A DNA stretch of 64,000 nt from an uncultured Thermoanaerobaculia bacterium (lineage in GTDB: Bacteria > Acidobacteriota > Thermoanaerobaculia > Thermoanaerobaculales > Sulfomarinibacteraceae), in the NCBI GenBank assembly GCA_964420405.1, contig CAYQTL010000011.1:268-64267 (forward strand). The letters run 5' to 3'. The translations under genes were made by a program, and so were the position numbers. Positions 14,081 through 46,650 of the stretch are shown here, in pieces (positions within the stretch are counted from its first letter, which is position 1; the number at the start of each line of letters is the position of its first letter). Below the pieces are notes generated by a model. The model was not told where the DNA came from, did no database searches, and saw only the letters and a program-made list of their open reading frames with translations.

Positions 14081-14099
14081 CCTCCGCCGGAGGTGCCCC

Positions 14100-19075: not shown

Positions 19076-19299
19076 CACGGCCTCCCTTCGCCGTCACAGC
19101 GGGAAACGGCGGTGACCCGCCGTCTGTTCCACATGTCGGTTCGTCGCCGGCGGCAGAGGGGTGACGCGGCGAACCGTCGCCGGACGACCCGCCACCGACA
19201 GCCAGTGCGGCAAGCGGCCGCGCCGCGCTCCGGTGCCCGCCCGCCGGCGGGCGGGCTACACTGTCGCCCGGGGAGCGCGTGGAGGTGGACGTGCGAACG

Positions 19300-22967: not shown

Positions 22968-23304
22968 CCATTCTATTTCGGACGGCCTGTGTGGGTCAAT
23001 TGCGGCTCGGTCGTCCCGTCGCGGATGCGTGACGTCGACTCCCGCATCCGCGCCGGCTGACGAGCCCCGACGGGAGCGGAGGGCCGGCGGCCTGGCGGAC
23101 CGGATCGGAAGCGGCGGCGCCCCGGCCGTCTTCTCGAGGGCACGCACGGACACCGACGCGGGTGCGGCGGCCGACTCGGCGGATGGGTTCGCGTTTCCGG
23201 CGGGATTTGCGAAACTCCCCTCGGGAACGCGACGTACGGCCCCCGTGTTGTGCAGCGCATGCGCCACCGCCGTGGCGCGAGCTCCACCGTCGAAGGGAAC
23301 CCGG

Positions 23305-25098: not shown

Positions 25099-25113
25099 CA
25101 AAGGACGGCTGAG

Positions 25114-28106: not shown

Positions 28107-28135
28107 GCCGTCGCGGCTGATCGGAGGATGGCACC

Positions 28136-30765: not shown

Positions 30766-31664
30766 CCCTTCAGGTTGACGACCTGCAGCAGGTCGGTCGC
30801 CAGGAAGACGTCGACGATCTCGTCGCTCAGCCCGACCTCGGGGTAGTACTGGGTGAGCTCGCGCAGCCGGCGGCGGGCACGGAAGGTGTCGCCGCGGCGG
30901 ATGGCGGTCTCCCCGAGGAGGAAGAGGCAGTTCTTGACGATCACGTCGTCGTCGTGGTGGAACGCCAGGTCGAGCGCCCGCTCGCCGCACTTCTCGGCGA
31001 GCTCCAGGCGGTCGTCCAGGATGTAGCCGTAGCACAGGTCCTGCAGGACCTCGTAGACGTAGTGGTCGGCGTCGAGCTCGTCGAGGGCGCGGCGCGCTTC
31101 CTCGCAATGCCCGATGCCGGACGCGAGCCGGTCGGTGCACATGTGGACGTAGCCGAGGTTGTCCCGCACCTGGGCGGCCATGATCGCTTCGAGGTCGGTG
31201 ACGCTGTCGTACAGCGCCAGCGCCTGCCGCAGGGACGTCTCGGCGTCGTCGAACTCCGCCGCCTTCATCGCGAGGATCCCGAACAGGTTGCAGCACGCCG
31301 CGCGGCGGCTGCGATCCGGCGAGCCTTCGGCGAGCCCGACAGCCCGGCGCGCGTACGAACGCGCCTGCTCGAGCTCGTCCTCGTGGTAGTACGCCTGGGC
31401 GACGTAGTAGGCGGCCTGGAGCTGGTTCTCGTGGTCCCCGCTCGACAGCAGCAGCCGTTTGAGGCCGACGATCTCGTCGTGACCCTCGCCGAGATCGATC
31501 CGGAACGCCGCCCGGTTGCAGACCGCCCGGTCGGCGAGGTCGCCGTCGCCGGCGGCGCGGGCGACCCGCTCGGCCTGGTCGGCGTGGGCGATGGCGGCGC
31601 GAAGGTCGCCGGCGACGAAGGCCTGCTCGGCCTGGCGCAGCAGCTCCCGTGCCTGCGCGCTCAC
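30762..31664 (-). CDS. TPR-like helical repeat protein
   Basis: Repeated A/L/Y-rich helix pairs (AAYYVAQAYYHEDELEQARSYARRAVGLAE; LRQALALYDS...). 4-nt overlaps on both sides. Confidence 0.55.
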   Translation of the reverse strand: MSAQARELLRQAEQAFVAGDLRAAIAHADQAERVARAAGDGDLADRAVCNRAAFRIDLGEGHDEIVGLKRLLLSSGDHENQLQAAYYVAQAYYHEDELEQARSYARRAVGLAEGSPDRSRRAACCNLFGILAMKAAEFDDAETSLRQALALYDSVTDLEAIMAAQVRDNLGYVHMCTDRLASGIGHCEEARRALDELDADHYVYEVLQDLCYGYILDDRLELAEKCGERALDLAFHHDDDVIVKNCLFLLGETAIRRGDTFRARRRLRELTQYYPEVGLSDEIVDVFLATDLLQVVNLKG

Positions 31665-32074
31665 GACGACGACTCCCCGCTGCGGCGGACCTCCGCCGCG
31701 CGCCGGTCCTGGCGCTCGCGGCGGAGCTTGAACTCGACGTACTCGTGGACCTCCTCGCGCGCCGCCGGGCTCAGCTCGCGCAGCATCTGCAGCATCTGCA
31801 TGTCGGCCTGGCTGAGGGGCTGGGCCGCCGGGCGGGCGGCCGGGGCCTCGTCGAAGAACTCGGAGATCTCGACCCCGAACACGCGCAGGATCCTGAAGAG
31901 GTTGTCGAGGGAGACGCGGTACTCGCCCTTCTCCATGCGCGACAGATCGGACTGTTGGATGCCGATTTGACGCGCCAGCTCCGCCTGGGTGAGCTGCCGC
32001 TGCTTGCGCAGCTTGCGCAGGCGGCTGCCGATGCTGGCGGCCTGCGGCACGGTCGGGGCGCTGCGTTGCGGCAT
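31661..32074 (-). CDS. XRE-family HTH transcriptional regulator with C-terminal extension
   Basis: Motif IGSRLRKLRKQRQLTQAELARQIGIQQSDLSRMEKGEYRVSLDNLFRILRVFG. Confidence 0.85.
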   Translation of the reverse strand: MPQRSAPTVPQAASIGSRLRKLRKQRQLTQAELARQIGIQQSDLSRMEKGEYRVSLDNLFRILRVFGVEISEFFDEAPAARPAAQPLSQADMQMLQMLRELSPAAREEVHEYVEFKLRRERQDRRAAEVRRSGESSS

Positions 32075-32327: not shown

Positions 32328-33182
32328 GTGACGCACGACAGCCGATGGCGACGGTACGGCCTGGCCTTCGCCCGCCTGCCGCTGGTCCTTTCCCGGCAGC
32401 GCTTCCTGCTCGCCCAGCTCGCCCGGCGCGCGTTCGCGGCGCGCCACGCCGGGCTCTACCTCGGGTGGCTGTGGACGCCGCTTTCGATCGTGGTCCAGTT
32501 CACCCTGTACCTGCTGGTGTTCTCGGTCATCCTGGAGCTCAAGGCCGAGAACCTTGGCATCGACCTTGCTAAGAGGGCGCCCGTGGGCTTCGGGGTGTTC
32601 CTGATCACCGGCATGGTGCCGTTCTTCGCCATCAACGACAGCGTCGTCCGGGCCGCGCGGGTGTTCCGCTCCCACTCGGCCCTGGTGCAGCGCATGCGGC
32701 TGCCGGCGGAGGTGCTGGTGGTGGGCGACATGGTGGGCGGGCTGGTCCACCACCTGGCGTCCCTGGCGCTGCTGGTGGGCTACTGCGTCTGGCAGGGGCA
32801 CATGATACCCTCGGACGCCGGCTGGCTGGCGCTCGCCTTCGTGGTGCTGTCGGTGTGGATCCTGGGCGTCGGGCTGGCGGTGGCGGTGGCCGGCGCGGTG
32901 CTGCCGGACCTGCCGGAGGTGCTGCAGCTCGGGCTGCAGGTGGCGTTCTTCGGGGCGCCGATCGTCTACCCGCTGGCGGCGGTCCCCGAGGGGCTGCTGC
33001 GGACGGCGGTGGAGCTGAACCCGGTGACCCAGATCGTGTCGCTGTGGCGCACGGCCCTGGTCGGCGCCGAGCCGCCGTCCGTGGCCGCGATCGCGGCGGT
33101 GGCGGTGATCGGCGTCGGCATCCTTGCGGTGGGTGCGGCGGCGCTCGAGCGGTGGCGGTACACCATCGCCGACCTGCTGTGA
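32328..33182 (+). CDS. ABC-2 type transporter permease (Wzm/TagG-like)
   Basis: GTG 32328 lies 7 nt after GGAGG. Motif LGWLWTPLSIVVQFTLYLLVFSVIL and 6 hydrophobic segments. The track start 31989 is rejected. Confidence 0.8.
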   Translation: MTHDSRWRRYGLAFARLPLVLSRQRFLLAQLARRAFAARHAGLYLGWLWTPLSIVVQFTLYLLVFSVILELKAENLGIDLAKRAPVGFGVFLITGMVPFFAINDSVVRAARVFRSHSALVQRMRLPAEVLVVGDMVGGLVHHLASLALLVGYCVWQGHMIPSDAGWLALAFVVLSVWILGVGLAVAVAGAVLPDLPEVLQLGLQVAFFGAPIVYPLAAVPEGLLRTAVELNPVTQIVSLWRTALVGAEPPSVAAIAAVAVIGVGILAVGAAALERWRYTIADLL

Positions 33183-33278
33183 GGGTGACGGTGCGAGGGT
33201 GAGCGAACGAGGACGACAGACGACGAGACCGCCGGGTGCGGGTGGGACCCCGACCCGGCGTCGGCAAGGGAGGCAGCG

Positions 33279-35057
33279 ATGATCGCGAAGCTGAGCAGCC
33301 CTGACGGTCGGCGACCGCACGGCATCGAGGACGAGATCACACCGGGATCCGGAGCCGCTCCGCGCTGGACGGGAGCGGTCCTGACGGCGGTCCTGTGCGC
33401 TGTGCTGGCGGCGGCGCCCGGCACAACGTGGGCCGACGAGGGCCCGGAGGAGACCGGTCAGGAGCCGGCCGCGGCCGAGACGCAGGCACCGGCAGCCGGC
33501 GAGGAGAACCCGCCCGTCGGCGGGGTCGACCTGGACATCATCCGCAAGGCGACCGAGCGCTCGTGGTCCGGCTTCCTCGAGCGCTGGCTGACGCCGATCC
33601 CGGTGCCGAAGAAGTCCGTGGTCTACCTCGAGGACGGCTACGCCCTGTCCCACCCGGCGGTGTCGTACAAGATGGAGGTCGTCCGCGAGGAGGGGGACAC
33701 CGTCTGGCTGCGCGGCCTGCCGCCGGAGGATCCCGAGTCGCCGCTGCATCCGCTCTGGCTGCAGCGCCAGCACAGCGAGATCCTCACCCAGGGCATCCAG
33801 GACTGGACCGCCGAGTACGGTGAGCCCTACTTCTTCCTCGACTTCACCGCCGAGCTGGTGCCGCCGCCGTTCGTCGACGGTTTCGAGTTCGTACCGACCG
33901 CAGAGGACCTGCCCAAGCGGGGCGGCTGGCAGATGAACATGGTCGTGGCGGACATGAACGGCGACGGCCACGCCGACCTCGTCCACCCGCCGACCCGCAA
34001 GGGCGAGGGACGGCCGTTCGTCTTCCTCGGTGACGGGGACGGCGGCTTCGAGCCGTGGGACGGCCAGATGTACTCGCGCAGGGTCCCGTTCGACTACGGC
34101 GGCGTGGCCGTGGCCGACTTCGACGGCGACGGCCACCGGGACATCGCCCTCGCGATCCACTTCAAGAGCCAGTGGGTGATGTACGGCGACGGGACCGGTG
34201 ACTTCACGCGGGTCGTCCGGCTGCCGAGCCCCGACCCGCGGATCACCTCGCGGGCGGTCACCGCGGCCGACTTCGACGGCGACGGCCGGGTCGACCTGGC
34301 GTTCCTGGCCGAGCTCGACCTCGACCTCGGCACCAACCTCCGCATCGACGACTCGCCGACGGTGTGGATCGCCCGCAACGGTCTCGACGGCTGGGGGCTC
34401 GTCAGCAAGGGGTTGGCCGGCCACCCGGTCATCGGCGACACGATCCGGTCCGCCGACTTCAACGGCGACGGCCTGCCGGACCTCGTGGTGTCCTCCAACG
34501 CCAACAACTACCGCGACCTGCTGCTGCTCAACCGGCCCGACGAGCCGTGGAAGTCGGCCGGCAGCCGGCTGGTGCTCGCCAGCGGGTACCACTTCGACAT
34601 CGCGCCGACCGTCGAGGGCGAGGGCGACGACGAGCAGGTGGTGGCCTATGCGACCTTCTCCCAGTTCCTCAAGGTCCTCGGCGACAACCAGACCCGCACC
34701 GGGATCATCCGGTACGTGGTCGGCGAGGAGGGCTTCGAGGCGCAGGGCGATCCGGTGGTGATGGACGACCAGCGGTACAACCCCTACTACCGGGTCACTT
34801 CCGGTGACATCAACGGCGACGGCCTCACCGACCTGGTGGCCGGCCGGAAGGGCGGCGGCCTGGAGGTCTACCTGCAGGTCTCGCCGGGAACCTGGTACCG
34901 CGAGCAGGCGCCCGAGCTCGCCGCCACCGGACGTCCCTACGACCTGCACCTCGTGGACCTCGACGGCGACGGGCGCGACGATCTGCTCGGCTGCTTCGCG
35001 GAAACCGAGAAGCACCCCGGCGGGGTGTGGGTGTGGATGACCCGTCCGAGGTCTTGA
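33279..35057 (+). CDS. Secreted FG-GAP/VCBS repeat protein
   Basis: Signal/TM segment AVLTAVLCAVLAAAPGTTWA. Six Ca-binding-type repeats (DMNGDGHADLV, DFDGDGHRDIA, DFDGDGRVDLA, DFNGDGLPDLV, DINGDGLTDLV, DLDGDGRDDLL). Confidence 0.85.
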   Translation: MIAKLSSPDGRRPHGIEDEITPGSGAAPRWTGAVLTAVLCAVLAAAPGTTWADEGPEETGQEPAAAETQAPAAGEENPPVGGVDLDIIRKATERSWSGFLERWLTPIPVPKKSVVYLEDGYALSHPAVSYKMEVVREEGDTVWLRGLPPEDPESPLHPLWLQRQHSEILTQGIQDWTAEYGEPYFFLDFTAELVPPPFVDGFEFVPTAEDLPKRGGWQMNMVVADMNGDGHADLVHPPTRKGEGRPFVFLGDGDGGFEPWDGQMYSRRVPFDYGGVAVADFDGDGHRDIALAIHFKSQWVMYGDGTGDFTRVVRLPSPDPRITSRAVTAADFDGDGRVDLAFLAELDLDLGTNLRIDDSPTVWIARNGLDGWGLVSKGLAGHPVIGDTIRSADFNGDGLPDLVVSSNANNYRDLLLLNRPDEPWKSAGSRLVLASGYHFDIAPTVEGEGDDEQVVAYATFSQFLKVLGDNQTRTGIIRYVVGEEGFEAQGDPVVMDDQRYNPYYRVTSGDINGDGLTDLVAGRKGGGLEVYLQVSPGTWYREQAPELAATGRPYDLHLVDLDGDGRDDLLGCFAETEKHPGGVWVWMTRPRS

Positions 35058-35118
35058 CGGGCCGGGATTCGTGTTGCCATAATGCCTGTCGTGTCGAAGC
35101 ACTTTGGATTTCCGGCTC

Positions 35119-35147
35119 TTGACGCGCCCCAGATGCGGTGCTATATT
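35119..35147 (+). promoter_or_regulatory. Strong sigma70-type promoter in an AT-rich island
   Basis: TTGACG (35119-35124), 17 nt, TATATT (35142-35147). It would give a ~150-nt leader before ATG 35301. Confidence 0.7.
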
Positions 35148-35300
35148 TTATGCTGTTACAGCATGAGATCGAGCTAAGATGAGTAGCTTCAAAAAGTTTC
35201 GGGAGGTGAGGCACAACGGAGGAGGGCAGGTTGGATCGCTCGCGTCGAACCTGAAAACGAGATCTCGAGAGGAAAATCGTTGAGAAGGAAGGAGTTGAGC

Positions 35301-36842
35301 ATGAAGAGGTTTCTGACCCTGGCGCTCGTGGCCGCGCTCGGACTGGGCGTGAGCAGCGCCGTGTACGCGAACGTGTGCGCGTTCGACCCGGTGCCGGCGG
35401 CGACGCTGCTGTTCCCGTTCGTGGCGTACGACTACGACGGCGGCTTCGGCGGCGACACCACGATCTTCTCGATCACCAACGTGTCGGCCGAGGCGCAGAT
35501 CGTCCACGTCACCCTGTGGACCGACTACTCGATCGCGATCCTCGACTTCAACATCCTGCTGACCGGCTACGACACCCAGCGGGTGAACATCCGCGACATC
35601 CTGGCCGACGGCCAGCTGCCGGTCACTGTGATCGCGACCCACGCGCAGACCCCGGGCAACGAGGGCGTGTTCCCCGACGGCCCGGTGTCGCCTGACAACG
35701 ACAACGGCGGCGGCGGTGCGAACACCGGTTCCTGGATCCAGGGCCTGCTGGAGTTCCCCGAGTCGACCAACGACCTCGGCAGCGACCGCTGCTCGACCAG
35801 CGACCAGGCCTACCCGGGTCTGTACGCCGACAACCTGATCCCGGCGACCCAGCTCGCGGCGTTCCAGGACTGGCTGCAGGCCAGCCAGACCGCGTCGCGC
35901 TCGCACGCCAACGACTGCAGCCCGCCGTACGGCCCGGCCTTCCAGATCAGCCCCGACCCGTGGTTCTACCTCCGGGATGAGACGGATCCGACCTGGATGT
36001 ACATCACGGCCGACGTGGTCGAGACCTGCAACCTCACCTTCCCGGACAACCCGGCGTACTACGTCGACGAGATCCGGTACGACAACGTCCTGATCGGCGA
36101 CGTGACCTGGCTGAACAACGACGAGCGGTTCTCCGAGGTGGACAACGCGATCCACATCGAGGCCGACATCGACCTCGCCCAGGTCGCCACCATCAACGCC
36201 GACAACGACCGTCCGGTGTCCTTCTACCACCGGTACTCGCAGAACGCGCAGTTCTCCGACTACCGCGAGCCGCTGCCGACCGCCTGGGCGTTCCGCTACC
36301 AGGGCGCGCAGGACGACGGCACCCTCGACACGCTCATCCGGGCGTGGAAGGGCAGCTCGCTGTGGCCGACCGTGTACGACCTCGAGTTCAACCCGCCCAA
36401 CGTGGGCCCGGACTCCTTCATCGCGAGCAACTGCTACGCGTACACCTACTACGCCTGGGATGAGGACGAGGACGTCATCACCGTGACCGACTTCCCGTGG
36501 TCGCAGCCCGGCGGCGGCCTCATCATCCCGAACCTCCTGCCGCTCGAGACCCAGGAAGTCTCGGTCGACGAGTTCGACACCGTCGACACCTTCGGCTGGA
36601 TGCTCTTCGTGTGGCCGGCGTCCAACTACGTCGGCATCCCCGGCGCCCCGGCGCCGCCGGACTTCTACCAGACCTGGATGGGCGTGAAGTACGTGAAGGC
36701 TGGCGACTACTCCGCCGCGACCAGCGGTGCGGTGATGGCCAACTTCAACTGCTTCTCCGACCAGGTGCTGCCGAACCTCGGCATCGACTACAACTACGTC
36801 GACCAGTTCGGCTACGTGTCCTCGCCGTCGCTCTTCGAGTAA
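35301..36842 (+). CDS. Secreted hypothetical protein (513 aa), no family recognised
   Basis: AAGGAG RBS and signal peptide MKRFLTLALVAALGLGVSSAVYA. GC3-rich host-like codons. Own promoter and terminator. Confidence 0.8.
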   Translation: MKRFLTLALVAALGLGVSSAVYANVCAFDPVPAATLLFPFVAYDYDGGFGGDTTIFSITNVSAEAQIVHVTLWTDYSIAILDFNILLTGYDTQRVNIRDILADGQLPVTVIATHAQTPGNEGVFPDGPVSPDNDNGGGGANTGSWIQGLLEFPESTNDLGSDRCSTSDQAYPGLYADNLIPATQLAAFQDWLQASQTASRSHANDCSPPYGPAFQISPDPWFYLRDETDPTWMYITADVVETCNLTFPDNPAYYVDEIRYDNVLIGDVTWLNNDERFSEVDNAIHIEADIDLAQVATINADNDRPVSFYHRYSQNAQFSDYREPLPTAWAFRYQGAQDDGTLDTLIRAWKGSSLWPTVYDLEFNPPNVGPDSFIASNCYAYTYYAWDEDEDVITVTDFPWSQPGGGLIIPNLLPLETQEVSVDEFDTVDTFGWMLFVWPASNYVGIPGAPAPPDFYQTWMGVKYVKAGDYSAATSGAVMANFNCFSDQVLPNLGIDYNYVDQFGYVSSPSLFE

Positions 36843-36865
36843 GCGACACCACGAGCGAGACCACA

Positions 36866-36895
36866 GCGGGGCGGCCTTCGGGCCGCCCCGCTTTT
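36866..36895 (+). terminator. Intrinsic terminator
   Basis: gcggggcggcc-ttcg-ggccgccccgc followed by tttt. Confidence 0.85.
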
Positions 36896-36965
36896 CGTCC
36901 TCCGGCTCGCCTTTGAAACAGGGCTCCAGAACCGTCCACCCCGATCCGGAGACGAGGCCGAACAA

Positions 36966-37013
36966 CTCAGGAATCGCTCTGATTCCTGAGATCCGAGGTG
37001 ACCGCGGTCACCT
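36966..37013. promoter_or_regulatory. Two perfect palindromes upstream of the giant-gene promoter
   Basis: ctcaggaatc-gctct-gattcctgag (36966-36990) and the 18-bp palindrome aggtgaccgcggtcacct (36996-37013), 58-105 bp upstream of the -35. Confidence 0.45.
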
Positions 37014-37070
37014 TCGCTTCGTCCATTCTAAGTTCCTGATTCACATAACGGTTCTACCACGTCGACGCGC

Positions 37071-37100
37071 TTGACAGCGGGAAACGGGCCTCCGTATAGT
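37071..37100 (+). promoter_or_regulatory. sigma70-type promoter of the giant gene
   Basis: TTGACA (37071-37076), 18 nt, TATAGT (37095-37100). GGAGG at 37109-37113. Confidence 0.65.
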
Positions 37101-37118
37101 GGAGCCGTGGAGGTGAGC

Positions 37119-40100
37119 ATGGCGTGCTCCCATTCCCCCGGATCGAGCTTCCTCCGGCGTCTCGCGTGGGCGTCGGTCCTGATCATGGCGGGGACGTCGG
37201 TCCCTGCGGCCGCCCAGGCGCCGTGTCTGGACTGGGTCGACGACCTGCACAACTCGTCGGACAACTGCCTGTCGCACCCGGCGATCCCCCGCTACCTCAT
37301 GAGCCACCTGCTCGACTGGAACGGGACGCCGTACTACGTGGTCGACAACGGCAACAACCTCGAGTTCTGGGACATCGGCACCAACCCGCTGGATCCGGTG
37401 CGGTGGGAGTTCAGCTCGTTCGGGGTCCCCAACCAGGGCGACTCGGACTACGACCTGCTCACCTTCTCGGTCTGCGACGGCTGCCGCTTCGGCACCGCGA
37501 GCTACAAGCTCGGCCTGGTCCTGTTCGACCTCGGCACCGGGACCCGGCCGCGGGTCGAGGGGAGCACCTTCCTGCAGGGCGCCCCGATCGGCGCGTTCAC
37601 CTTCGAGTCGGGCAGCTCGCAGTACGTCATCACCAAGGGGCTGCCGGACAGCTGCACCGGCGGCGGCTCGACGCTGTACGAGGTCTCCCGCGACGGCGCC
37701 GACGTCGTCCTCGACCGGCTCAGCTGCGTCGAGCTGCCCGGCGGGGCCACCTTCCAGCCGGCCGGTGGCGTCTCGATCGACGGGCCCGACGGCCAGTACC
37801 TGTACCTCGCCAAGACCACCTCCCCGATCTCGGTCTTCAAGGTGATCCCGGCGGGCGGCTCCATCAGCCTCCAGTACGTGGACGTGGGCGGCGACCCCCG
37901 GCTGCGGGCGGTGATGCAGTTCGGCAAGGGCATGTCCTACGACGAGTCCCGCGACCTGCTCGCGACGGCCTACGAGAGCCGCGGCCTGACGTTATGGGAC
38001 GTGTCCAACCCGGCGAGCCCCCAGGAGATCTGGTCGGATGCGAACCTCGTCGCGAGCCGGGTGGCCCTCGGGCCGGGCTTCATGCATGTCACGGGCCCGA
38101 GCCTGGGTGACGTCTACTCCTACGACATCTCCAACCTCTCCAACCCGGTGCTGGTGGACCCCGACTTCTGGGACCTCGACAACAGCTGGAACGAGAACTG
38201 CTCGCTCGCCACCAACTACGACGGCATCTTCCACCCGACGGAGCCGATCGCCTACGTGGCGCGGTTCGCCAAGGACCAGATCATCGACTACCGGCCGTGC
38301 GGCGGCGGCGTCGCCCCGACCGCGGCCGTGTCGCTCGAGCCCGCGATCGCCTTCCCGGGCGACACGGTGACGGTCGGCAACGTCTCGCTGGGGGCCTTCA
38401 CCCGCTCCGCGGTGTGGGTCACCAGCGGCGACGATCCCCACGGCACGGTGGTCGGAGGCTCGGACGACCTGTCGGCCGGGACCCCGTCGTCGCGGGTGTT
38501 CCCGCTCCCGCAGGACCTCCAGCAGGGCCTCGGCTTCTGGGCGCACGTGGCGGTCGAGTCGGACGAGTTCCCGTACACCCCGGGCGCGACCCCCGACCAG
38601 ATCGACTCGGTGACGGTGGGCATCGACCGCACCCCCGAGGTCGGCATCGACCAGAGCGACCCGGCGCCGATCACCGGCGAGACGGTGACGTTCACGGCCG
38701 TCGCCGAGGGCAATCCACCCTCGGACGCCTACCTGTGGACCGTGACCGAGCCCGGCGGCCAGCCCACGGCGCTGGACATCGTCGGACCCCAGGTGCAGGT
38801 GGAGCTCTCCGAGAGCGGGGAGTGGGCGGTCGACGTCAGCGTGAGCTACCTCCACCAGGGGCTGACGGGAGGGCCGTACGTGGCCACCGCCGGCCTCGAC
38901 CTCGACATCAGCTCGGTCGCCGCGGCCCTCGAGGTGCTGCCGGCGAGCCCGCTGCACAACGAGCCGATCACGCTCAACAACCTCTCGGCCGTGGCCTCCG
39001 GCGCGACCCTCGACCTCGACTTCGACGTGCTGAACGCCTCCGGGACGAGCGTCGTCAACGAGCTCTCGTTCTGCGACGGTGCCGGCACCATCTCCACCGA
39101 CTGCGAGATCCCGGCCGAGACCCTGACGCCGGCGACCTACACCTTCCAGCTCACGGTCACCAACACCGACACGGGCGACCTCTCCACCGCCTCCGAGCAG
39201 GTCCAGGTGCAGGACGGCAGCCTGCAGCCGGTGATCCAGGTGTCCGACGCGACCCCCGACATCGGCAAGGTCATCACGTTCACGATCGGCGGCGTGCCGT
39301 CGGTGGAGCGAACCACCTGGAACTTCGGCGGCCCGGGCTGCTCGCCCTACGCCGTCACCGAGGTCTGCGAGCCCGGGATCTTCGGCAACTGCCTCGCCCA
39401 GACCTACTCCTACGCCACCGCGGGGGCCAAGACGGCCCAGGTGACCATTCGCTACAACAGCAACGACTTCGGCCCCTACCAGATCAACCTCGACGTCAAC
39501 AACACCGGCAGCTGCACCGGCGGCGGCGGCGGTGGTGGTGGCGGCGGCGGCGGCGGGACCTGCACCTACACCATCAGCCCGACGTTCGGCTTCGCCGACG
39601 CCCCCGGCGGCAGCGGGGCCTTCTCGCTCTCCACCCAGAGCGGGTGCGGCTGGAACGCCTCGTCGAACCGCAGCTGGCTCACCGTCAGCCCGACCAGCGG
39701 CAACGGCTCGAGGACCATCAGCTGGCAGGCGGCGTCGAACCCGGCCGAGGAGCGCACCGGCACCATCACCGCCGGCGGCAAGAGCTATACCGTCACCCAG
39801 GGCGGCCAGCCGCAGTGCGAGTACACCCTGTCGGCGACCACCAGTACCGTCTCCGCGACCGCCGGCACCGGCACCGTCACGGTCTCCACCACCTCGGGGT
39901 GCGAGTGGACCGCCATCTCCAGGGACGGCTGGATCCGGGTGACGTCGCCGGCCGACGGCAGCGGCGTCGGTTCCGGCACGGTGCGCTTCGCCTACGACGA
40001 GAACCCGTGGCAGGGTGAGCGCGAGGGGATCCTCGAGATCGCCGGCAACACCTACACCCTGGTCCAGAACCCGGTGATCCCGGCCAACTTCCAGATCTCG

Positions 40101-42767
40101 AAGACCAACCCGGACATCGGCGAGACGGTGACCTTCACGGTCGACCCGCGGCTCGAGGTGGCCAGCTGGGACTTCGGCGGCCCCAACTGCGACGAGGAGC
40201 CGGCGTTCGTCGACTGCGACACCATGCCCCAGTCCATGTGCCAGACGATCCAGTGGAGCTGGACCGAGCGTGGCCCGAAGACCATCACCATGGAGACCGC
40301 CGACGGCGACGTGGCGGAGAAGACCGTCTGGGTCCAGAACGCGGGCACGTGCCCGTGCAAGGACTCGGCGCCGACGGCCTCGTTCGAGCTCTCGCCCGAG
40401 ATCGCCGAGTACGGTGACACCGTGACCTTCACCGCCACCACCGGCGGCATCCCGTCCGCCAAGGTGCTGGCGCTGGACTTCCGCTGGGATCCCGTCGAGC
40501 CGAGGATCGGCCAGGGCGTCGACTTCCGGGTCGAGGGCGTCGCCGGGATCGACGAGGTGCGGTGGAACTTCGGCGGCTCCGGCTGCTCGCCGTTCACCCA
40601 GACCGCCACCTGCACACCGGGCCTCTTCAGCGACTGCACCCTCGAGCAGTACCAGTACGCGACCGCCGGCGCCAAGACCGTCACCCTGACGGTGATCGCC
40701 GACGGCCAGACCTTCGGCCCCGTCTCCCAGAGCCTCACCGTCCTCAACGAGGGATCGTGCTCCGGCGGCGGCGGCGGTGGCGGCGGCGGTGGTGGCGGCG
40801 GCTGCACGTACTCGCTCGCGCCGACCTCCGCCAGCTACCCGGCCGCCGGAGACACCGGCACCTTTGACGTCACCACCCAGAGCGGCTGCGCGTGGACCGC
40901 GTCCTCCAACCGGTCCTGGGCCCGGATCACCTTCCCGGACCCGCCCTCGGGCAGCGGCTCCAGCACCGTCGAGTACGTGGTGGACCCCAACACCGGCCTG
41001 CAGCGCAGCGGTGCCATCACGATCAGCTACACGGGCGGCTCGAAGACCCACACCTTCAGCCAGGGCGCCACCGGCGGCGGTGGCGGCGGTGGCGGTGGCG
41101 GTGGCGGGGGTGGCGGTGGCGGTGGCGGGACCACCGGCGACTCGAACCCCGACGAGTGGCATTGGACGATCTGGCGCAACGGCTCGGTGGTCGTGACCTC
41201 CGACCAGCCGATCTTCCAACACGAGTTCACCCTGCCCGGCGTGTACGACGTCGAGCTCGAGGTGGTGAACTGCGCGGGCTCCGACACCGCTACCGGTACC
41301 TTCGAGGTACTGCCCCCTCCGATCACCGCGGCGGAGGACTACGTGGTGCCGTCGGCCGTCCACACGGCGGGCCTCAACGACACCCTGTGGAAGACGGACC
41401 TGCGGCTGTACAACCCATGCGGGGAGGCTGCCAACATCCGCATCCGCTACCTTCCGGAGGACGTCAACAACGCCAGCGGCCAGATCAGCTACGTCAGAAA
41501 CGACACCCTGTCGCCCAACGGCACCAAGGTGTACGACGACGTGGTCGACCTGTACCCCCTCGACGGCGACGACCACAAGGGCTCGCTGCGGATCACCTTC
41601 CCCGGCGCCGAGACCTGCCGGCCGATGATCATGTCGCGGACCTACAACGACACCCCCTACGGCTCGTTCGGCCAGTTCGTGCCGGCGGTGCCGGTGCTGC
41701 CGTCGGAGGGCGGCGAGGTCCACCTCACCGGGCTCGTCCACAACCTGTTCTACCGGACGAACATCGGCTTCGCGAACCTGTCCGAGGAGGACGTCTGGGG
41801 AATCGAGATCGACGTCCTCGACCAGGACGGCAACCAGCTCGGCAGCACCGTCACCCGGATGGTGCCCGGGTTCTCCAGCGCGCAGGTCGTCAAGATCGCC
41901 GAGGCCGCCGGCGTCACCGGCAACCTGAACGTGTTCTCGGTGAGGATCCGGACCTCGAGCCCGGACATCACGGCCTACGCCTCGGTGGTGGACAACATCA
42001 CCGGCGACCCGGTCTACCTGACGCAGTCGGACACCGTCGACGAAATGGTGTACGTGCCGGGCGTCGCCCACCTGCCGGGGTTCAACGACTCCCGCTGGCG
42101 GACCGACTTCGCCCTCTACAACCCCCACGACTCCGACATCGACGTGCTGGTCCACTACGTGCCCGACGCGCCCCTCGACGAGCCTCCGTTCGACATCGAG
42201 ATCGTCGGCATGTACCCGGGCGTCGAGCGCTCCTGGATCGACGTCCTCGACACCCTCGCCAGCGAGCAGGACACGAAGGGCTACTTCGTGGTGTCGGCGA
42301 TGGACGACACGCCGCTGCCCCAGGTGGCGGCCCGGACCTACAACCTGTCGCTGTCGGGCGGAACCTTCGGCCAGAACCTGAAGGTCTACGGCTCGCGGGA
42401 CCTGATCCAGATCGGCGAGGTGGCGATCCTGCCCGGGATCTCCAACTCCTCCGACCGCGACACCGGCTTCCGGACCAACCTCGGCCTGCTCAACACCGGC
42501 ACGGACACCGCGATGGACGCCGAGATCACGCTGTACGGCGGCTCGGGCCAGGTGCTCGCCACCATGTACCAGCAGCTCGCCGCCGGCGAGTTCAAGCAGA
42601 TCAACAACATCTTCCAGGCCGCCGGCGTCGGCGACCTCGACGTCCAGGGCTCGATCGAGGTCCGGATCACCACAGGTGGTCCGGCCGCGGTCTACGCCTC
42701 GGAGGTCGACAACCGCACCCAGGACCCGATCCTGATCCCCGCCGAGCGGCTCCCGCCACTCGAGTAG
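37119..42767 (+). CDS. Giant secreted multidomain protein (1,882 aa): LVIVD-like propeller, Ig/PKD-like modules, BACON-like domains, poly-Gly linkers, unassigned tandem C-terminal domain
   Basis: Signal peptide MACSHSPGSSFLRRLAWASVLIMAGTSVPAAAQA. LVIVD-like strands (LEFWDIGTNPLDPV, LTLWDVSNPASPQEIW, VYSYDISNLSNPVLV). BACON-like CTYTISP...GCGWNASSNRSWLTV. Gly13, Gly13 and Gly19 tracts. Uniform GC3-rich codons. Confidence 0.85.
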   Translation: MACSHSPGSSFLRRLAWASVLIMAGTSVPAAAQAPCLDWVDDLHNSSDNCLSHPAIPRYLMSHLLDWNGTPYYVVDNGNNLEFWDIGTNPLDPVRWEFSSFGVPNQGDSDYDLLTFSVCDGCRFGTASYKLGLVLFDLGTGTRPRVEGSTFLQGAPIGAFTFESGSSQYVITKGLPDSCTGGGSTLYEVSRDGADVVLDRLSCVELPGGATFQPAGGVSIDGPDGQYLYLAKTTSPISVFKVIPAGGSISLQYVDVGGDPRLRAVMQFGKGMSYDESRDLLATAYESRGLTLWDVSNPASPQEIWSDANLVASRVALGPGFMHVTGPSLGDVYSYDISNLSNPVLVDPDFWDLDNSWNENCSLATNYDGIFHPTEPIAYVARFAKDQIIDYRPCGGGVAPTAAVSLEPAIAFPGDTVTVGNVSLGAFTRSAVWVTSGDDPHGTVVGGSDDLSAGTPSSRVFPLPQDLQQGLGFWAHVAVESDEFPYTPGATPDQIDSVTVGIDRTPEVGIDQSDPAPITGETVTFTAVAEGNPPSDAYLWTVTEPGGQPTALDIVGPQVQVELSESGEWAVDVSVSYLHQGLTGGPYVATAGLDLDISSVAAALEVLPASPLHNEPITLNNLSAVASGATLDLDFDVLNASGTSVVNELSFCDGAGTISTDCEIPAETLTPATYTFQLTVTNTDTGDLSTASEQVQVQDGSLQPVIQVSDATPDIGKVITFTIGGVPSVERTTWNFGGPGCSPYAVTEVCEPGIFGNCLAQTYSYATAGAKTAQVTIRYNSNDFGPYQINLDVNNTGSCTGGGGGGGGGGGGGTCTYTISPTFGFADAPGGSGAFSLSTQSGCGWNASSNRSWLTVSPTSGNGSRTISWQAASNPAEERTGTITAGGKSYTVTQGGQPQCEYTLSATTSTVSATAGTGTVTVSTTSGCEWTAISRDGWIRVTSPADGSGVGSGTVRFAYDENPWQGEREGILEIAGNTYTLVQNPVIPANFQISKTNPDIGETVTFTVDPRLEVASWDFGGPNCDEEPAFVDCDTMPQSMCQTIQWSWTERGPKTITMETADGDVAEKTVWVQNAGTCPCKDSAPTASFELSPEIAEYGDTVTFTATTGGIPSAKVLALDFRWDPVEPRIGQGVDFRVEGVAGIDEVRWNFGGSGCSPFTQTATCTPGLFSDCTLEQYQYATAGAKTVTLTVIADGQTFGPVSQSLTVLNEGSCSGGGGGGGGGGGGGCTYSLAPTSASYPAAGDTGTFDVTTQSGCAWTASSNRSWARITFPDPPSGSGSSTVEYVVDPNTGLQRSGAITISYTGGSKTHTFSQGATGGGGGGGGGGGGGGGGGGGTTGDSNPDEWHWTIWRNGSVVVTSDQPIFQHEFTLPGVYDVELEVVNCAGSDTATGTFEVLPPPITAAEDYVVPSAVHTAGLNDTLWKTDLRLYNPCGEAANIRIRYLPEDVNNASGQISYVRNDTLSPNGTKVYDDVVDLYPLDGDDHKGSLRITFPGAETCRPMIMSRTYNDTPYGSFGQFVPAVPVLPSEGGEVHLTGLVHNLFYRTNIGFANLSEEDVWGIEIDVLDQDGNQLGSTVTRMVPGFSSAQVVKIAEAAGVTGNLNVFSVRIRTSSPDITAYASVVDNITGDPVYLTQSDTVDEMVYVPGVAHLPGFNDSRWRTDFALYNPHDSDIDVLVHYVPDAPLDEPPFDIEIVGMYPGVERSWIDVLDTLASEQDTKGYFVVSAMDDTPLPQVAARTYNLSLSGGTFGQNLKVYGSRDLIQIGEVAILPGISNSSDRDTGFRTNLGLLNTGTDTAMDAEITLYGGSGQVLATMYQQLAAGEFKQINNIFQAAGVGDLDVQGSIEVRITTGGPAAVYASEVDNRTQDPILIPAERLPPLE

Positions 42768-42796
42768 GACCAGCGGGCCGCGACGCAGAGCCACCA

Positions 42797-42824
42797 GGGG
42801 CGGCCCCGCGGGGCCGCCCCTTTC
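42797..42824 (+). terminator. Intrinsic terminator of the giant gene
   Basis: ggggcggcc ... ggccgcccc followed by tttcc. Confidence 0.75.
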
Positions 42825-42854
42825 CTGTCGAGGTTCTGCGGTCCCATCACGTGT

Positions 42855-43078
42855 CCGCCCCCGATCCCGATGGCAGCGACACTGTCAGGGTCAGCGGCGG
42901 CCGGGTCGCGGACAGAGGCAGAGGCGACCGGCCTGCGGGCATCGTGGGGGGTCCTTCGACTCCCGGCACGCCTCCGGCGTGCCGCTCGCTCAGGATGACG
43001 GCAGGAGAGGCGGCCTCCGGCGTGCCGCTCGCTCAGGATGACGGCAGGGGAGGCCGCCTCCGGCGAGGATGGCGGCGC
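42855..43078. repeat. Repeat-family copy (H-S-B) ending in a 43-bp tandem repeat of about 2.5 units
   Basis: cccgatcccgatggcagcgacactgtcagggtcagcg ... ggtccttcgactcccggcacgcctccggcgtgccgctcgctcaggatgacgg. The unit cctccggcgtgccgctcgctcaggatgacggcagg.gagg starts at 42971, 43014 and 43057. Confidence 0.85.
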
Positions 43079-43535
43079 CTGGGTGTCGCGCTCGGTCAGT
43101 GTCACGGGAGGGGGCCCTCTTTGAATGGTCCCTGCTCGCGAGGACGGCCCAGGGAGGGCCTCCGTCCGCGTCGACCGGTCACGGGACGTGCGGTGCGTCG
43201 CCGGGGTCCGACGGGCGCGAACGGCGGACCCACGTGTTTCCGCGCGCGACTCGAGACCCGTGCGCCCCGTGACGGTGTCTCGAGATGGCCCGTGAGCACC
43301 AGCGAGCACCGGAGTCGTGGTGTCCCCACCCCGGGACGCGCTTGCAGTGCTGCTGTCGCCCTTCTGGGGGCCAGATTCCCGTCGGCGATGACCCGAGACG
43401 GTGCGCCAGCGCCGGCGAGCCCTTCCGCGCAGCCGCCCCGCACAGGAGGCGCCAGCATCCTGGACGAGTGCCGGGGTGTCGCGTGACGCCGCCCGCCCTA
43501 TGGGACGGCGCCACGCGGCGACGTCCCGGCAGCCC

Positions 43536-44354
43536 TCAGAGCTCGCCCTCCTCGATCGCCTCGAGCCGCTCGGGGTGGACGAAGAGCGACGGGTCGAACG
43601 GGCCGAGCACCTCGGGCTCGATCTCGACGATCCGGTTGTGGCCGGTCGGCCCGCCCCCGACCGCGAACCCCTCCATGAGGATCTGGGTCGGCAGCCGGAC
43701 ACCGTCGACGCTCTTCGTCCGCAGCACCTTGTAGCGCATGCCTTCGTCGACCACGTCCTGCATCGTCTCGGGGGGCGTGACGGCGACCGTCAGCAGCTCG
43801 AGGGTCTCCTGGTCCACCTCGAGGGCCCAGCTTCCGCCGGCCATGCTCGGAGCGAGGAAGAACCCCGGCGGGATCGTGATCTGCGCCTGCCAGGTGGGCC
43901 GGCCCTGGCTCGTCGACGCCCTCACCTCGCCGAGGGCCACCCCGTCCATCTCGAGAGAGAACGGCAGCAGCATCGGGAAGACCTTCTGGTTCACGGTGCC
44001 GCGGCTCATCTTCGCCGCCTGCGGCCGCTCGTCGACCTCGCCCTTGACCAGCGCCCACGAGTCGCCCTCGTTGCGCACCACCGTGGCGCCGTTGCGGAAC
44101 TCGAGCCGCGCGTTGTCCGGGTTCGGCATGTACACGGTGAGGTCGAGCAGGGTCTGGAACTGGCGCCCGTCGGCCAGCGTCTCCTGCTCCTCGACGCCGA
44201 ACCGGACGGTACCCAGCCTGGCCAGCGCGTCGTGGCCGCCGGCCGCCTCGACGATCCTCTCCACCAGCTCCTCCGGGCTCGGCGGCGCAGCCAGCACCGG
44301 CGCCGCGACCACCATCGCGAGCACTGCCGTCATCGTCCACCGGCGGTAGTGCAT
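43536..44354 (-). CDS. Secreted hypothetical protein (272 aa)
   Basis: ATG 44354 gives the signal peptide MHYRRWTMTAVLAMVVAAPVLAAP. The N-terminal EELVERIVEAAGGHDALARL pattern is reminiscent of LolA-like/DUF secreted proteins, but this is weak. Confidence 0.65.
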   Translation of the reverse strand: MHYRRWTMTAVLAMVVAAPVLAAPPSPEELVERIVEAAGGHDALARLGTVRFGVEEQETLADGRQFQTLLDLTVYMPNPDNARLEFRNGATVVRNEGDSWALVKGEVDERPQAAKMSRGTVNQKVFPMLLPFSLEMDGVALGEVRASTSQGRPTWQAQITIPPGFFLAPSMAGGSWALEVDQETLELLTVAVTPPETMQDVVDEGMRYKVLRTKSVDGVRLPTQILMEGFAVGGGPTGHNRIVEIEPEVLGPFDPSLFVHPERLEAIEEGEL

Positions 44355-44455
44355 GTCGTCTCCTCCCTTTCTGCGGTGCCGTTCCGGCACCTTTCCGTCA
44401 CGGCCGGCGAGTATAAAGCAATCGTCGTGCCACCGCTGTGGTACTCTCCCGCCGC

Positions 44456-45670
44456 ATGCGCAGCGCCGGGTTCGGGCACGCCGTCGTCGTCGACAACGTC
44501 CACAAGTGGTACCGGGTCTACGCCTCCCCGTTCGAGCGGGTCAAGCGGGTCGTGGGCGCCCCCAGCCGCCACCTGGACTTCCGCGCCCTCGACGATGTGT
44601 CGTTCGCCATCCGTCGTGGCGCGGCGGTCGGCGTCATCGGCGAGAACGGCGCCGGCAAGTCCACCCTGCTCAAGCTGATCGCCGGCACGACCCGGCCGAC
44701 CGCGGGGACGGTCGAGGTCGAGGGCTCGGTGGCGGCGATCCTCGAGCTCGGGGCGGCGTTCCATCCGGAGTTCACCGGCCGCGACAACGCGATCCTGTAC
44801 GGCGCGATGCTCGGCATCGACCGTCCGGACATGGAGCGGCGCCTCGGCGACGTGTTCGGCTTCGCCGAGCTGGGCGAGTTCGTCGAGCACCCGATCAAGA
44901 GCTACTCCACCGGCATGCAGATGCGGCTCGCCTTCGCCGTCGCGACCCACGTCGATCCCGACGTCCTGGTGGTCGACGAGGCGCTGGCGGTGGGCGACGG
45001 CTACTTCCAGAAGAAGTGCGTCGACCGGATCCTCGAGATCCGCGAGCGCGGCACCACGATCCTGTTCTGCTCCCACTCCATGTACTACGTGTCCATGTTC
45101 TGCGAGCGCGTGATCTGGCTGCGCTCGGGGCGCGTCGTGGCCGACGGTCCGCCCCAGGAGGTGGTGACGGCCTACGAGGAGTTCCTCGTCAACCGCGAGC
45201 GCAGGCGGCTCGAAGGCGGCGCCGGGGAGGGAGCCGAGGCGCGGCCGGAGCGGCCCGGGCAGGCGGCGAGGATCGTCGCGCTGCGGGTGCTCGACGGCGA
45301 CGACCGCGAGCTCGGCGGCTACCGCCCCGGCGAGCCGGTGACGGTGGAGATCGAGTGGGAGGCGGCCGACCCTGACGCCGAGCTGCACCTGGGGGTCGCC
45401 CTGGAGCGGGGCGACGGCATGCGCCTGGTCGGGGTGGCGACGTTCCTGGACGGTCTGCCGCCGCTCCGCGGCGGCGGGATCCGCAAGGCCCGGGTCCGCT
45501 TCCCCGGCGTGCCTTTGGCCAAGGGGCACTACGCCGTCACCGGCTACCTGTTCGACCGCTCGGGGCTGCACATCTGGGACGAGGTGGTCGTGCCCGACCG
45601 GCTCAAGCCGGCCTCGGAGAAGTGGCAGCCGGCGGTGCTGCAGCTCGACCACCGGTGGGAGACGCCGTGA
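44456..45670 (+). CDS. ABC transporter ATP-binding protein, Wzt/TagH-like with ~160-aa C-terminal extension
   Basis: Walker A GENGAGKSTLLKLI, signature YSTGMQMRLAFA, Walker B VLVVDEALAVGD. Alternative start GTG 44438. Confidence 0.88.
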   Translation: MRSAGFGHAVVVDNVHKWYRVYASPFERVKRVVGAPSRHLDFRALDDVSFAIRRGAAVGVIGENGAGKSTLLKLIAGTTRPTAGTVEVEGSVAAILELGAAFHPEFTGRDNAILYGAMLGIDRPDMERRLGDVFGFAELGEFVEHPIKSYSTGMQMRLAFAVATHVDPDVLVVDEALAVGDGYFQKKCVDRILEIRERGTTILFCSHSMYYVSMFCERVIWLRSGRVVADGPPQEVVTAYEEFLVNRERRRLEGGAGEGAEARPERPGQAARIVALRVLDGDDRELGGYRPGEPVTVEIEWEAADPDAELHLGVALERGDGMRLVGVATFLDGLPPLRGGGIRKARVRFPGVPLAKGHYAVTGYLFDRSGLHIWDEVVVPDRLKPASEKWQPAVLQLDHRWETP

Positions 45671-46650
45671 GCGACCTCCTCCTGCGCCCGTTCCGCCCCG
45701 GCGACGAAGGCGCCGTCAACGACGGCTTCAACGAGGCGTTCGGCCTCGCCCGGCCGCTCGACGAGTGGGCGTGGAAGTTCCCGCCCGAGCCTGGTGGCCG
45801 GCTGATCATGCTCGCCGAGCAGGACGGCGAGATCCTGGCCCACTACGCCGGCTGTCCGGTCCGGTTCGAGATCGACGGCCGGGCGTGGCCGGCGGCGTTG
45901 ATCGGGGATGTCTACTCGCGTCGCTCCGCGCGGACGCGGTTCAGCCGTCGCGGGGTGTGGGTGCAGACGGTGGAGGCGTTCTTCGAGCGGTTCGGCGAGT
46001 CCGGCCGGGTGGCGATGCTGTACGGGTTCCCGAGCCCCCGCCCGTTGCGGCTCGGGGTCCTCCAGCTCGGCTACGACGCCATCGAGCCGCAGCCGATCCG
46101 ATACCTCCGACGGACGCCCGCCCGTCGTGCCTCCGCACCCGTCCGCCTGCTGTACCGGGCCGAGGTGGCGCCCGACTGGGAGCCGCGCCTCGACGGGCTG
46201 TGGCGGCGGGTCCGCCGGTCGTACCCGGCGGCAGCGGTGCGGGACGCCGACCGTGCCCTGCGCCGCCTCGCCGGCCACCCGTCGGTCCGTTACCACCGGT
46301 TCGTGGTCACGCCGCGGTTCGGGGACGCGGTGGTGGCGTTCGCGGCGTTCCGGACCGACGGGGGACGGGTCCGGTGGGTCGACCTGGTCTGGGACCACGG
46401 CCATCCCGGCGCGCTCGCGCTGCTCGCCCACCTCTCGGCGCGCCTCGCCGCCCAGGCCGGCGCGGAGATCGAGGAGATGTGGCTCAACGGCGACCCCGAG
46501 GGAGAGGGACGGCTCCTCCGGCGCGGTTTCGACGTCGCCCCCGAGCCCCTCGGCCTGGTCATGGTCGCCAAGGCGTTCGACCCCGCCCTCGACCTGTCCG
46601 CGCTCGACGGCCGGATCTACCTCACCATGGCCGACGCCGACCTGGTCTAG
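45667..46650 (+). CDS. GNAT-family acetyltransferase-like protein
   Basis: GTGA overlap with the ATPase stop. The protein starts LLLRPFRPGDEGAVNDGFNEAF...LAEQDGEILAHYAG. The stop TAG lies inside the terminal CTAG of the following element. Confidence 0.6.
   Translation: MSDLLLRPFRPGDEGAVNDGFNEAFGLARPLDEWAWKFPPEPGGRLIMLAEQDGEILAHYAGCPVRFEIDGRAWPAALIGDVYSRRSARTRFSRRGVWVQTVEAFFERFGESGRVAMLYGFPSPRPLRLGVLQLGYDAIEPQPIRYLRRTPARRASAPVRLLYRAEVAPDWEPRLDGLWRRVRRSYPAAAVRDADRALRRLAGHPSVRYHRFVVTPRFGDAVVAFAAFRTDGGRVRWVDLVWDHGHPGALALLAHLSARLAAQAGAEIEEMWLNGDPEGEGRLLRRGFDVAPEPLGLVMVAKAFDPALDLSALDGRIYLTMADADLV

Follow-up and report, generated by a model that had tools for sequence, protein, structure and literature searches.

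A Wzm/Wzt-type exporter gene pair separated by four secreted-protein genes in a conserved gene cluster of Acidobacteriota

Gene layout of the locus

The 64,000-nt stretch analysed here (the window; ~72% G+C) comes from an uncultured Thermoanaerobaculia bacterium (contig CAYQTL010000011.1, nt 268–64267), and encodes the two halves of a Wzm/Wzt-type ATP-binding cassette (ABC) exporter on either side of a run of secreted-protein genes, not next to each other. The permease and ATPase genes are separated by 11,273 bp containing four genes, which specify an FG-GAP/VCBS propeller protein, a 513-amino-acid (aa) protein (ORPH), a giant protein and a 272-aa protein (P272). All four products carry a signal-like hydrophobic N-terminal segment. 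An earlier note on this DNA, made from the sequence alone, had placed the two exporter genes about 11.3 kb apart with four signal-peptide proteins in the gap, and both statements agree with the gene calls, which were made from a frame analysis of third-position GC (GC3), and with the domain identifications, which used profile searches of Pfam, NCBIfam and PDB sequences. The core of the locus is as follows.

nt 32328–33182, plus strand: Wzm-like ABC-2 permease, 284 aa (Pfam ABC2_membrane, PDB Wzm)
nt 33279–35057, plus strand: FG-GAP/VCBS beta-propeller protein with signal-like segment (Pfam FG-GAP_3, 127 bits; FG-GAP, 88 bits)
nt 35301–36842, plus strand: ORPH, 513-aa secreted protein with signal peptide
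nt 37119–42767, plus strand: giant secreted protein, 1,882 aa (Pfam BACON_2, BACON and PKD)
nt 42768–43535, no strand: non-coding spacer, 768 bp, no coding signal
nt 43536–44354, minus strand: P272, 272 aa, periplasmic protein of the LolA superfamily by predicted fold, with signal peptidase I (SPI) signal
nt 44456–45670, plus strand: Wzt-like ABC ATPase, 404 aa (Pfam ABC_tran and Wzt_C)
nt 45667–46650, plus strand: GNAT-like protein, 327 aa (Pfam Acetyltransf_9, 29.9 bits)

The GTG start of the GNAT-like gene overlaps the ATPase stop codon by 4 bp (GTGA), in line with the coupling reported before; a PDB-sequence profile search with the GNAT-like protein gave nothing useful.

By sequence, the permease and the ATPase match the same solved complex, the Wzm-Wzt of A. 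aeolicus. The permease has six to seven hydrophobic segments and scores 26.4 bits against ABC2_membrane (PF01061), 0.5 bits under the cut-off of 26.9, and its homologues, the named ones of which come from Thermoanaerobaculales metagenome-assembled genomes (MAGs), carry PF01061. An NCBI protein (P0121) matches it at 100% identity. The best PDB-sequence match of the permease was A. aeolicus Wzm (E 5e-11), with KpsM, TagG and TarG also matched, and its matches to the NCBIfam KpsM and Wzm/RfbD models were weak. The ATPase scores 79 bits against ABC_tran and, at residues 276–377, 46.4 bits against Wzt_C (PF14524; cut-off 30.4), which supports the Wzt-type C-terminal extension described in the earlier note. 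Among PDB sequences it ranked TarH first and full-length A. aeolicus Wzt second, with TagH also returned, and it fell below the cut-offs of the NCBIfam TagH and Wzt/RfbE models; a look-up of its exact sequence gave no match. It had been called the only ABC ATPase in the window, and a six-frame motif scan of the 64 kb indeed gave a single Walker A plus ABC signature (YSTGM, in this protein); no further ABC parts turned up when the remaining genes of the window (nuo, atpB, purA and aminotransferases among them) were scanned with Pfam. The locus thus has an ABC-2 permease, a nucleotide-binding domain (NBD) with Walker A and YSxGM signature and a Wzt_C domain, as expected of a Wzm/Wzt-type system, and lacks adjacency or co-transcription of the two genes.

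Two other exporter types were considered and rejected. The TagGH/TarGH teichoic-acid reading was built on the TagH-like ATPase, a cytidylyltransferase-like gene and a GlpD-like gene; it fails because the second of these genes is coaD and the ATPase reaches 228 and 197 bits with the TagH models, far short of their cut-offs of 538 and 320, and a check for the teichoic-acid pathway found no Glyphos_transf. As for a KpsMT capsule exporter, the KpsM model scores 39 bits (cut-off 300), and no KpsE- or KpsD-like gene was found among the scanned window genes.

Conservation of the split layout in relatives

Scanning genomes with an ORPH alignment gave 28 loci (species-level, all from MAGs), labelled Acidobacteriota, Thermoanaerobaculia, Holophagae or Sulfomarinibacteraceae, plus two with odd labels that are probably mis-binned; the genome matches of the cluster are to Thermoanaerobaculia and relatives. 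In a metagenome scan, 587 of the 600 pattern-matched stretches examined encoded a relative, among the matches listed, and 80 loci were kept. These repeat the pattern down to 30% ORPH identity (30–45% in the distant ones). Positions were counted over 108 non-duplicate loci, with the assessable loci as denominators. Permease and ATPase genes are adjacent in none of the loci (0/108); the FG-GAP gene lies directly upstream of ORPH in 58/60, the permease gene directly upstream of FG-GAP in 44/54, and the ATPase gene follows the giant in 20/26. The spacing of the two exporter genes is 8.5–12.9 kb in 17 loci. Because of these counts, the split is the defining layout of a conserved cluster and not a local accident. 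The earlier note had proposed a synteny comparison to see whether wzm and wzt are neighbours in relatives; no adjacent pair was found, and the order is kept in relatives down to 35–42% protein identity, with exceptions in clade D and in the loci L006 and L007.

The gene order is the same in nearly all of the 28 genome loci, and begins with a divergent operon for a helix-turn-helix (HTH) regulator, a tetratricopeptide repeat (TPR) protein and a protein designated u325, which in the window are three translationally coupled minus-strand genes that open the region 29.7–48.2 kb. The order is HTH-TPR-u325 (divergent), then permease, FG-GAP, 513-aa protein, giant, (272-aa protein), ATPase, (GT4-GT2), GNAT-like and YfhO-like, where GT4 and GT2 are glycosyltransferases and brackets mark genes not always present. 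The corresponding flanking features of the window are listed here.

nt 27591–29308, plus strand: coaD and GT4 glycosyltransferase, upstream flank (NCBIfam coaD, 185 bits, above cut-off; Pfam Glyco_trans_1_4)
nt 29758–30765, minus strand: u325, 335 aa, secreted (GC3 frame; signal-like N-terminus) MTMRRALLVAVLL
nt 30762–31664, minus strand: TPR protein, 300 aa, cytoplasmic (Pfam TPR_12 and TPR_MalT)
nt 31661–32074, minus strand: XRE-type HTH regulator, divergent from the permease gene (Pfam HTH_3, 58.8 bits)
nt 46900–48218, minus strand: LAB_N membrane protein and ArnC-like GT2, convergent with the GNAT-like gene (Pfam LAB_N, 101 bits; Glycos_transf_2, 102 bits)

The last gene of the divergent operon, u325, overlaps the TPR gene by 4 bp and adjoins the cluster in nearly all relatives; its product gave no match in Pfam, NCBIfam or PDB-sequence searches. 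The TPR protein is invariant in position and length among relatives, and the coaD and GT4 genes flank the cluster upstream in most close relatives.

In the closest loci (L001, L002 and L004, with ATPases of 91%, 78% and 70% identity) the order ORPH-giant-P272-ATPase-GNAT is preserved, P272 being encoded on the minus strand. Two long contigs with ~57% identity (L008+L010 and L009+L011) retain the entire series, HTH-TPR-u325 followed by permease-FG-GAP-ORPH-giant-P272-ATPase-GT4-GT2-GNAT-YfhO-like-(LAB_N)/GT2. In L011 the plus strand carries P272, with 22 bp between it and the ATPase gene that follows, so that all genes from permease through GNAT are co-directional. The locus of a distant ORPH relative, P0398 (L041), has proteins 35–47% identical to those of the window in the order u341-TPR-HTH, then permease-FG-GAP-ORPH-giant-ATPase-GNAT-YfhO-like; its genes from permease to YfhO are co-directional, the gap from giant to ATPase is 60 bp, and ATPase and GNAT overlap by 4 bp. 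Intergenic gaps are 20–60 bp in L011 and L041, and the gap between permease and FG-GAP is 38–96 bp in all lineages. In relatives the GNAT gene follows the ATPase gene directly or after GT4-GT2, and in L041 it does so at 37% identity.

The position of P272 is constant while its strand flips, with one orientation in L011, L026–L028, L032, L040 and L075 and the other in the window, L001–L004, L010 and L013–L015, and three loci (L085, L088 and L115) have an inverted ATPase gene. In each case a single gene is inverted within an otherwise fixed order. A second copy of the cluster, partial or degenerate, is present in one MAG (L036, CAVQBD01 contig_13628, compared with L038, contig_8997); the second copy in the MAG of L038 has permease, ORPH and giant fragments.

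Further genes lie outside the cluster. Downstream, nt 48215–51471 (minus strand) encode a GlpD-like DAO/DAO_C oxidoreductase and a FAD_binding_4/FAD-oxidase_C enzyme; the pair is kept just downstream of the cluster in many relatives (also in L001, L002, L004, L010 and L011) and may be lipid-related, for example in ether-lipid or glycerol-phosphate metabolism. Upstream, nt 22654–27204 (plus strand) encode a protein weakly similar to SpoIVB/S55 and one of 696 aa whose match to an OmpL47-type barrel is weak, preceding coaD-GT4, and both genes are syntenic in many relatives. TIGR03436, a model specific to acidobacteria, is matched at 198 bits by a VWA-domain protein (nt 19279–21036), in support of the phylum assignment. 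Housekeeping genes lie within nt 581–12144 and 14076–15907, namely the nuo (complex I) operon, the genes for ATP synthase subunit a and purA, and two tRNA genes (nt 15465–15537 and 15833–15907), so that the window represents chromosomal core and not an island.

Embedded proteins, transcription units and glycan genes

ORPH is the best-conserved protein of the cassette, at ~60% identity where the giant shows ~40%. It was taken for an orphan in the earlier note, which is not borne out, as its family is large (1,547 representative clusters), although unannotated: ORPH has no Pfam, NCBIfam or PDB-sequence match. Homologues for modelling of P272 and ORPH were gathered with a chimeric query of P272 and an ORPH fragment. 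The AlphaFold2 model of ORPH (81 sequences; predicted local distance difference test (pLDDT) score 89, predicted template modelling (pTM) score 0.89) is a multi-beta-sandwich without a significant fold match in the PDB; only a TM1070-like sub-domain aligns. ORPH-like modules (P0394–P0458) were also seen twice in tandem in proteins of 650–1,200 aa, inside PKD-rich proteins of 1,800–1,900 aa, and fused to BACON or a proprotein-convertase P-domain. The module is a widespread extracellular domain family without a Pfam model.

The giant has an LVIVD-type N-terminal propeller (22.7 bits), PKD/Ig-like repeats, three BACON domains between poly-Gly linkers, and a C-terminus of two unannotated ~230-aa repeats, a part without Pfam or PDB match. 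Homology of ORPH to these C-terminal repeats was tested and rejected; no relationship was found.

P272 has an SPI-type signal without a lipobox, and showed no Pfam, NCBIfam or PDB-sequence match, LolA families included. Its AlphaFold2 model (8 sequences, pLDDT 88.6) is predicted to have the LolA-superfamily fold, an open beta-barrel with a helical plug. A Foldseek search of the PDB with this model returned the LolA-superfamily protein NE2245 (E 7e-10, probability 1.0) with TM-scores of 0.53–0.64 to LolA-superfamily structures, and further matches to LolA3 of P. gingivalis, DUF1329, 3bk5 and many LolA/LolB. The window holds no LolCDE or LolB genes.

Four promoter-like sites were found where 0.3 were expected from shuffled sequences, and hairpins were assessed by RNA folding.

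nt 32246–32218, minus strand: promoter-like site before the HTH operon
nt 35054–35083 and 35119–35147, plus strand: two promoter-like sites upstream of ORPH (TTGACG-18-CATAAT and TTGACG-17-TATATT, 10/12 each)
nt 36865–36892 plus TTTT (to 36896), plus strand: intrinsic-terminator hairpin after ORPH (12-bp GC stem, UUCG loop)
nt 37071–37100, plus strand: near-consensus promoter-like site before the giant (TTGACA-18-TATAGT, 11/12)
nt 42796–42821 plus TTT (feature 42796–42826), plus strand: GC-rich terminator-like hairpin after the giant

That two of the intervening genes have promoters and strong terminators of their own had been noted before, and the predicted sites and hairpins bear this out for ORPH and the giant. 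The 3' hairpin of the giant is identical in L001. The block is read as at least five predicted transcription units: permease-FG-GAP, ORPH, giant, P272 and ATPase-GNAT. The spacer following the giant was overstated as repeat-filled, and has one 43-nt tandem duplication (nt 42970–43055) plus short, chance-level repeats; it measures 768 bp here against 233 bp in the 91%-identical L001, and the duplication falls within the extra ~535 bp. An RNA gene was sought in the spacer without an Rfam match.

Glycosyltransferases in the window are limited to the GT4 upstream and the ArnC-like GT2, with LAB_N, downstream. The latter is of the polyprenyl-phosphate sugar synthase type (NCBIfam ArnC-type, 116 bits, below cut-off). 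Relatives carry a GT4b-GT2b pair coupled to the ATPase (clades B and C), a WbaP-like enzyme and, following the GNAT gene, a YfhO-like membrane protein of 730 aa, which in L007 has a weak match to Wzy_C (E 0.007). After the ATPase gene, other lineages have GT4-GT2 and YfhO-like genes that are missing from the window and from L001, and homologues of GT4b, GT2b and YfhO were sought elsewhere in the window without success.

Interpretation and comparison with known systems

The locus is best described as an old, conserved envelope-glycoconjugate cluster of Acidobacteriota in which the separated Wzm and Wzt act together with the secreted proteins embedded between them, a reading to which a probability of about 60% is assigned. 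A single functional unit is best supported because the order survives at 35–42% identity, through single-gene inversions and the loss or gain of accessory genes, because gaps are tight in several lineages, and because glycan genes lie on both sides. Under this proposal, permease and ATPase would form a Wzm2Wzt2-type exporter that moves a polyprenyl-diphosphate-linked glycan, made by the neighbouring GT4/GT2 enzymes, across the inner membrane, with the C-terminal domain of Wzt recognising the polymer end and the translationally coupled GNAT-like enzyme working on the cytoplasmic side. The ArnC-like GT2 and LAB_N protein, together with the YfhO-like GT-C enzyme (found in relatives but not in the window), might decorate the product in the periplasm, as the nature of these proteins suggests, and the predicted LolA fold of P272 suggests lipid-anchor handling, so that this protein could shield the lipid anchor in periplasmic transit. 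The FG-GAP propeller, ORPH and the giant would be extracytoplasmic partners that bind or retain the polymer at the surface, or are themselves decorated with it; surface binding of glycans is suggested by the BACON and PKD domains. The set is probably under the control of the divergent HTH-TPR-u325 operon. More tentatively, and with odds clearly below even, the cluster may represent an undescribed lineage-wide envelope assembly system, in which an O-antigen-type exporter is hard-wired to the FG-GAP protein, ORPH, the BACON/PKD giant and dedicated XRE-TPR regulators, with LolA-like and YfhO-like proteins as frequent accessories, and builds a surface coat of protein and glycan, such as a layer that is glycosylated or tethered by glycan, and not a classical lipopolysaccharide O-antigen or capsule.

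Several observations weigh against a functional cluster. The earlier note had offered, as one of two options, that exporter, GNAT and secreted proteins form one surface-structure locus; the conserved linkage favours this, while functional coupling between the exporter and the secreted proteins is something we infer from that linkage only. Inertia accounts for some of the synteny, since the conserved flank of close relatives includes the housekeeping gene coaD. Separate predicted promoters and terminators serve ORPH and the giant, and wzm and wzt are therefore not co-transcribed here. Clade D (L026, L027, L028, L032 and L040) has no ATPase gene after the cassette, which ends in a plus-strand P272 followed by convergent WbaP-like, GT4 and GT2 genes. 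Conversely, in L006 and L007 an ATPase-GNAT-YfhO-GT2 block has unrelated genes upstream, and these ATPases fall within the clade of the window's ATPase. L007 and L040, which share a sample of origin, have a tetranucleotide correlation of 0.96, as high as that of two pieces of a single contig, which is only suggestive of a lineage with the exporter halves unlinked within one genome. No permease gene was found in eight loci, in two more (L100 and L104) it has moved to the far side of u325, and L041 has no P272. Among the scanned window genes there was no polymer-terminating enzyme, initiating phosphoglycosyl transferase, ligase or outer-membrane export component. Finally, deletion of the genes between wzm and wzt of Synechocystis gave no phenotype (PMC3769361).

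Several of these points also support the main rival, namely that Wzm and Wzt are true partners for an O-antigen-like polymer while the FG-GAP, ORPH, giant and LolA-like genes are passengers, an independent surface-protein module with its own HTH-TPR-u325 that lodged there long ago and was kept by inertia. It would account for the separate promoters and terminators of ORPH and the giant, for cassettes without an adjacent ATPase (clade D) or without a permease (8 loci), for ATPase-GNAT-YfhO blocks without the cassette, and for the silent Synechocystis deletion, and the most invariant core is indeed HTH-TPR-u325 plus FG-GAP-ORPH-giant. Inertia is hard put, however, to explain an order kept at 35–42% identity through position-preserving inversions of P272 and the ATPase gene, and the short permease-FG-GAP gap found everywhere, together with the co-directional, tightly spaced genes of L011 and L041, also argues against passengers. 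This explanation is judged unlikely, although it is the strongest of the alternatives.

The cargo could instead be a lipid or glycolipid, or the exporter could otherwise serve the cassette proteins, passing hydrophobic cargo to the LolA-like protein in place of a classical polyprenyl-linked polysaccharide. We regard this as improbable. The Wzt_C domain of the ATPase, its translational coupling to GT4-GT2 in clades B and C, the WbaP-like, GT4 and GT2 genes after the cassette in clade D and the dispensability of P272 in L041 all speak for a glycan, and have to be set against the predicted LolA-superfamily fold of the protein encoded beside the ATPase, the pathway-specific LolA2/LolB2 of flexirubin loci (PMC11885536), the few glycosyltransferases in the window and the lipid-type oxidoreductase genes (DAO/GlpD-like, FAD_binding_4) downstream.

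That permease and ATPase are not partners, each having another, unlinked ABC component and being co-located by coincidence, is considered very improbable. The two genes are separate transcription units 11.3 kb apart and apparently unlinked in one clade, and the Pfam score of the permease is just under the cut-off; yet 64 kb contain no second ABC ATPase or ABC-2 permease, neither gene was ever beside a different ABC partner in the loci examined, at least 17 loci have both on one contig, and the same solved Wzm-Wzt complex is the top PDB match of the permease and, after TarH, the second of the ATPase.

The other option of the earlier note, insertion of a cell-surface cassette into a glycan-export operon, is effectively refuted as a recent horizontal event that would have split a contiguous wzm-wzt pair: the cassette has its own promoters and terminators and local GC dips to 0.64–0.65 at 35–37 kb, but the dips are AT-rich intergenic promoter regions, the GC3 of the cassette genes (0.94–0.97) is the same as that of their neighbours and gives no compositional sign of foreign origin, and every relative examined, down to ~35% identity, has the arrangement and none an adjacent wzm-wzt pair.

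Abundant in soils and sediments, Acidobacteriota are difficult to grow in culture, and next to nothing is known of their envelope biology. Among their multi-gene units the cluster is one of the more strongly conserved, and it ties a well-understood glycan exporter to unannotated families (ORPH, u325 and the C-terminal domains of the giant). If the coupling of exporter and secreted proteins is real, it would open the construction of the cell surface in these bacteria to genetic study, and provide a natural case of the halves of a type V ABC exporter being expressed from separate promoters, even separate loci.

Compared with known systems, the exporter resembles the Wzm-Wzt O-antigen transporters of A. 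aeolicus and E. coli O9a in its ABC-2 permease, YSxGM-bearing NBD and C-terminal Wzt_C-type domain. It differs from them in that the two genes are 11.3 kb apart in separate transcription units with four secreted-protein genes embedded, and in that no WbdD-/WbbB-like chain terminator, WaaL or WecA was seen in the window. The S-layer glycosylation (slg) clusters of Geobacillus and Paenibacillus have a Wzm/Wzt pathway, with a binding domain, beside abundant surface-protein genes. The present cluster is similar in encoding such an exporter next to secreted proteins, but no S-layer protein, S-layer homology (SLH) domain or WsaB-type oligosaccharyltransferase was recognised, and ORPH and the giant are unannotated. 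Three-component periplasmic glycosylation combines a GtrB/CsbB-type GT2, a flippase and a GT-C enzyme such as YfhO. The window has an ArnC-like GT2 with a LAB_N membrane partner, and relatives have the YfhO-like protein, whereas the 64-kb window has no YfhO-like gene. The flexirubin loci mentioned above, with their LolA2/LolB2, and LolA3 are comparable to P272, which has a predicted LolA fold and an SPI signal and is encoded inside a biosynthesis/export cluster; unlike those paralogues, P272 lacks a Pfam LolA match, a LolB-like partner and LolCDE, and its neighbour is a Wzt-type ATPase.

The statement in the earlier note that wzm and wzt genes are normally adjacent is true in general but not absolute. 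In mycobacteria the galactan exporter locus has the split order wzt-glfT1-wzm, called an "unusual organization" by its authors (PMC13018209); there, one cytoplasmic glycosyltransferase gene lies inside a single operon, while here four exported-protein genes (11 kb) and terminators intervene. In Synechocystis PCC 6803, slr0977 (wzm/kpsM) and slr0982 (wzt/kpsT) are separated by several hypothetical genes and followed by sugar-nucleotide genes (PMC3769361); the separation of permease and ATPase is shared, and the intervening genes there are small hypotheticals. A literature search found no description of this acidobacterial cluster or its protein families. A split wzm/wzt has precedents, and what is new here is the conserved wiring of a transporter of known type to secreted proteins and a LolA-like protein.

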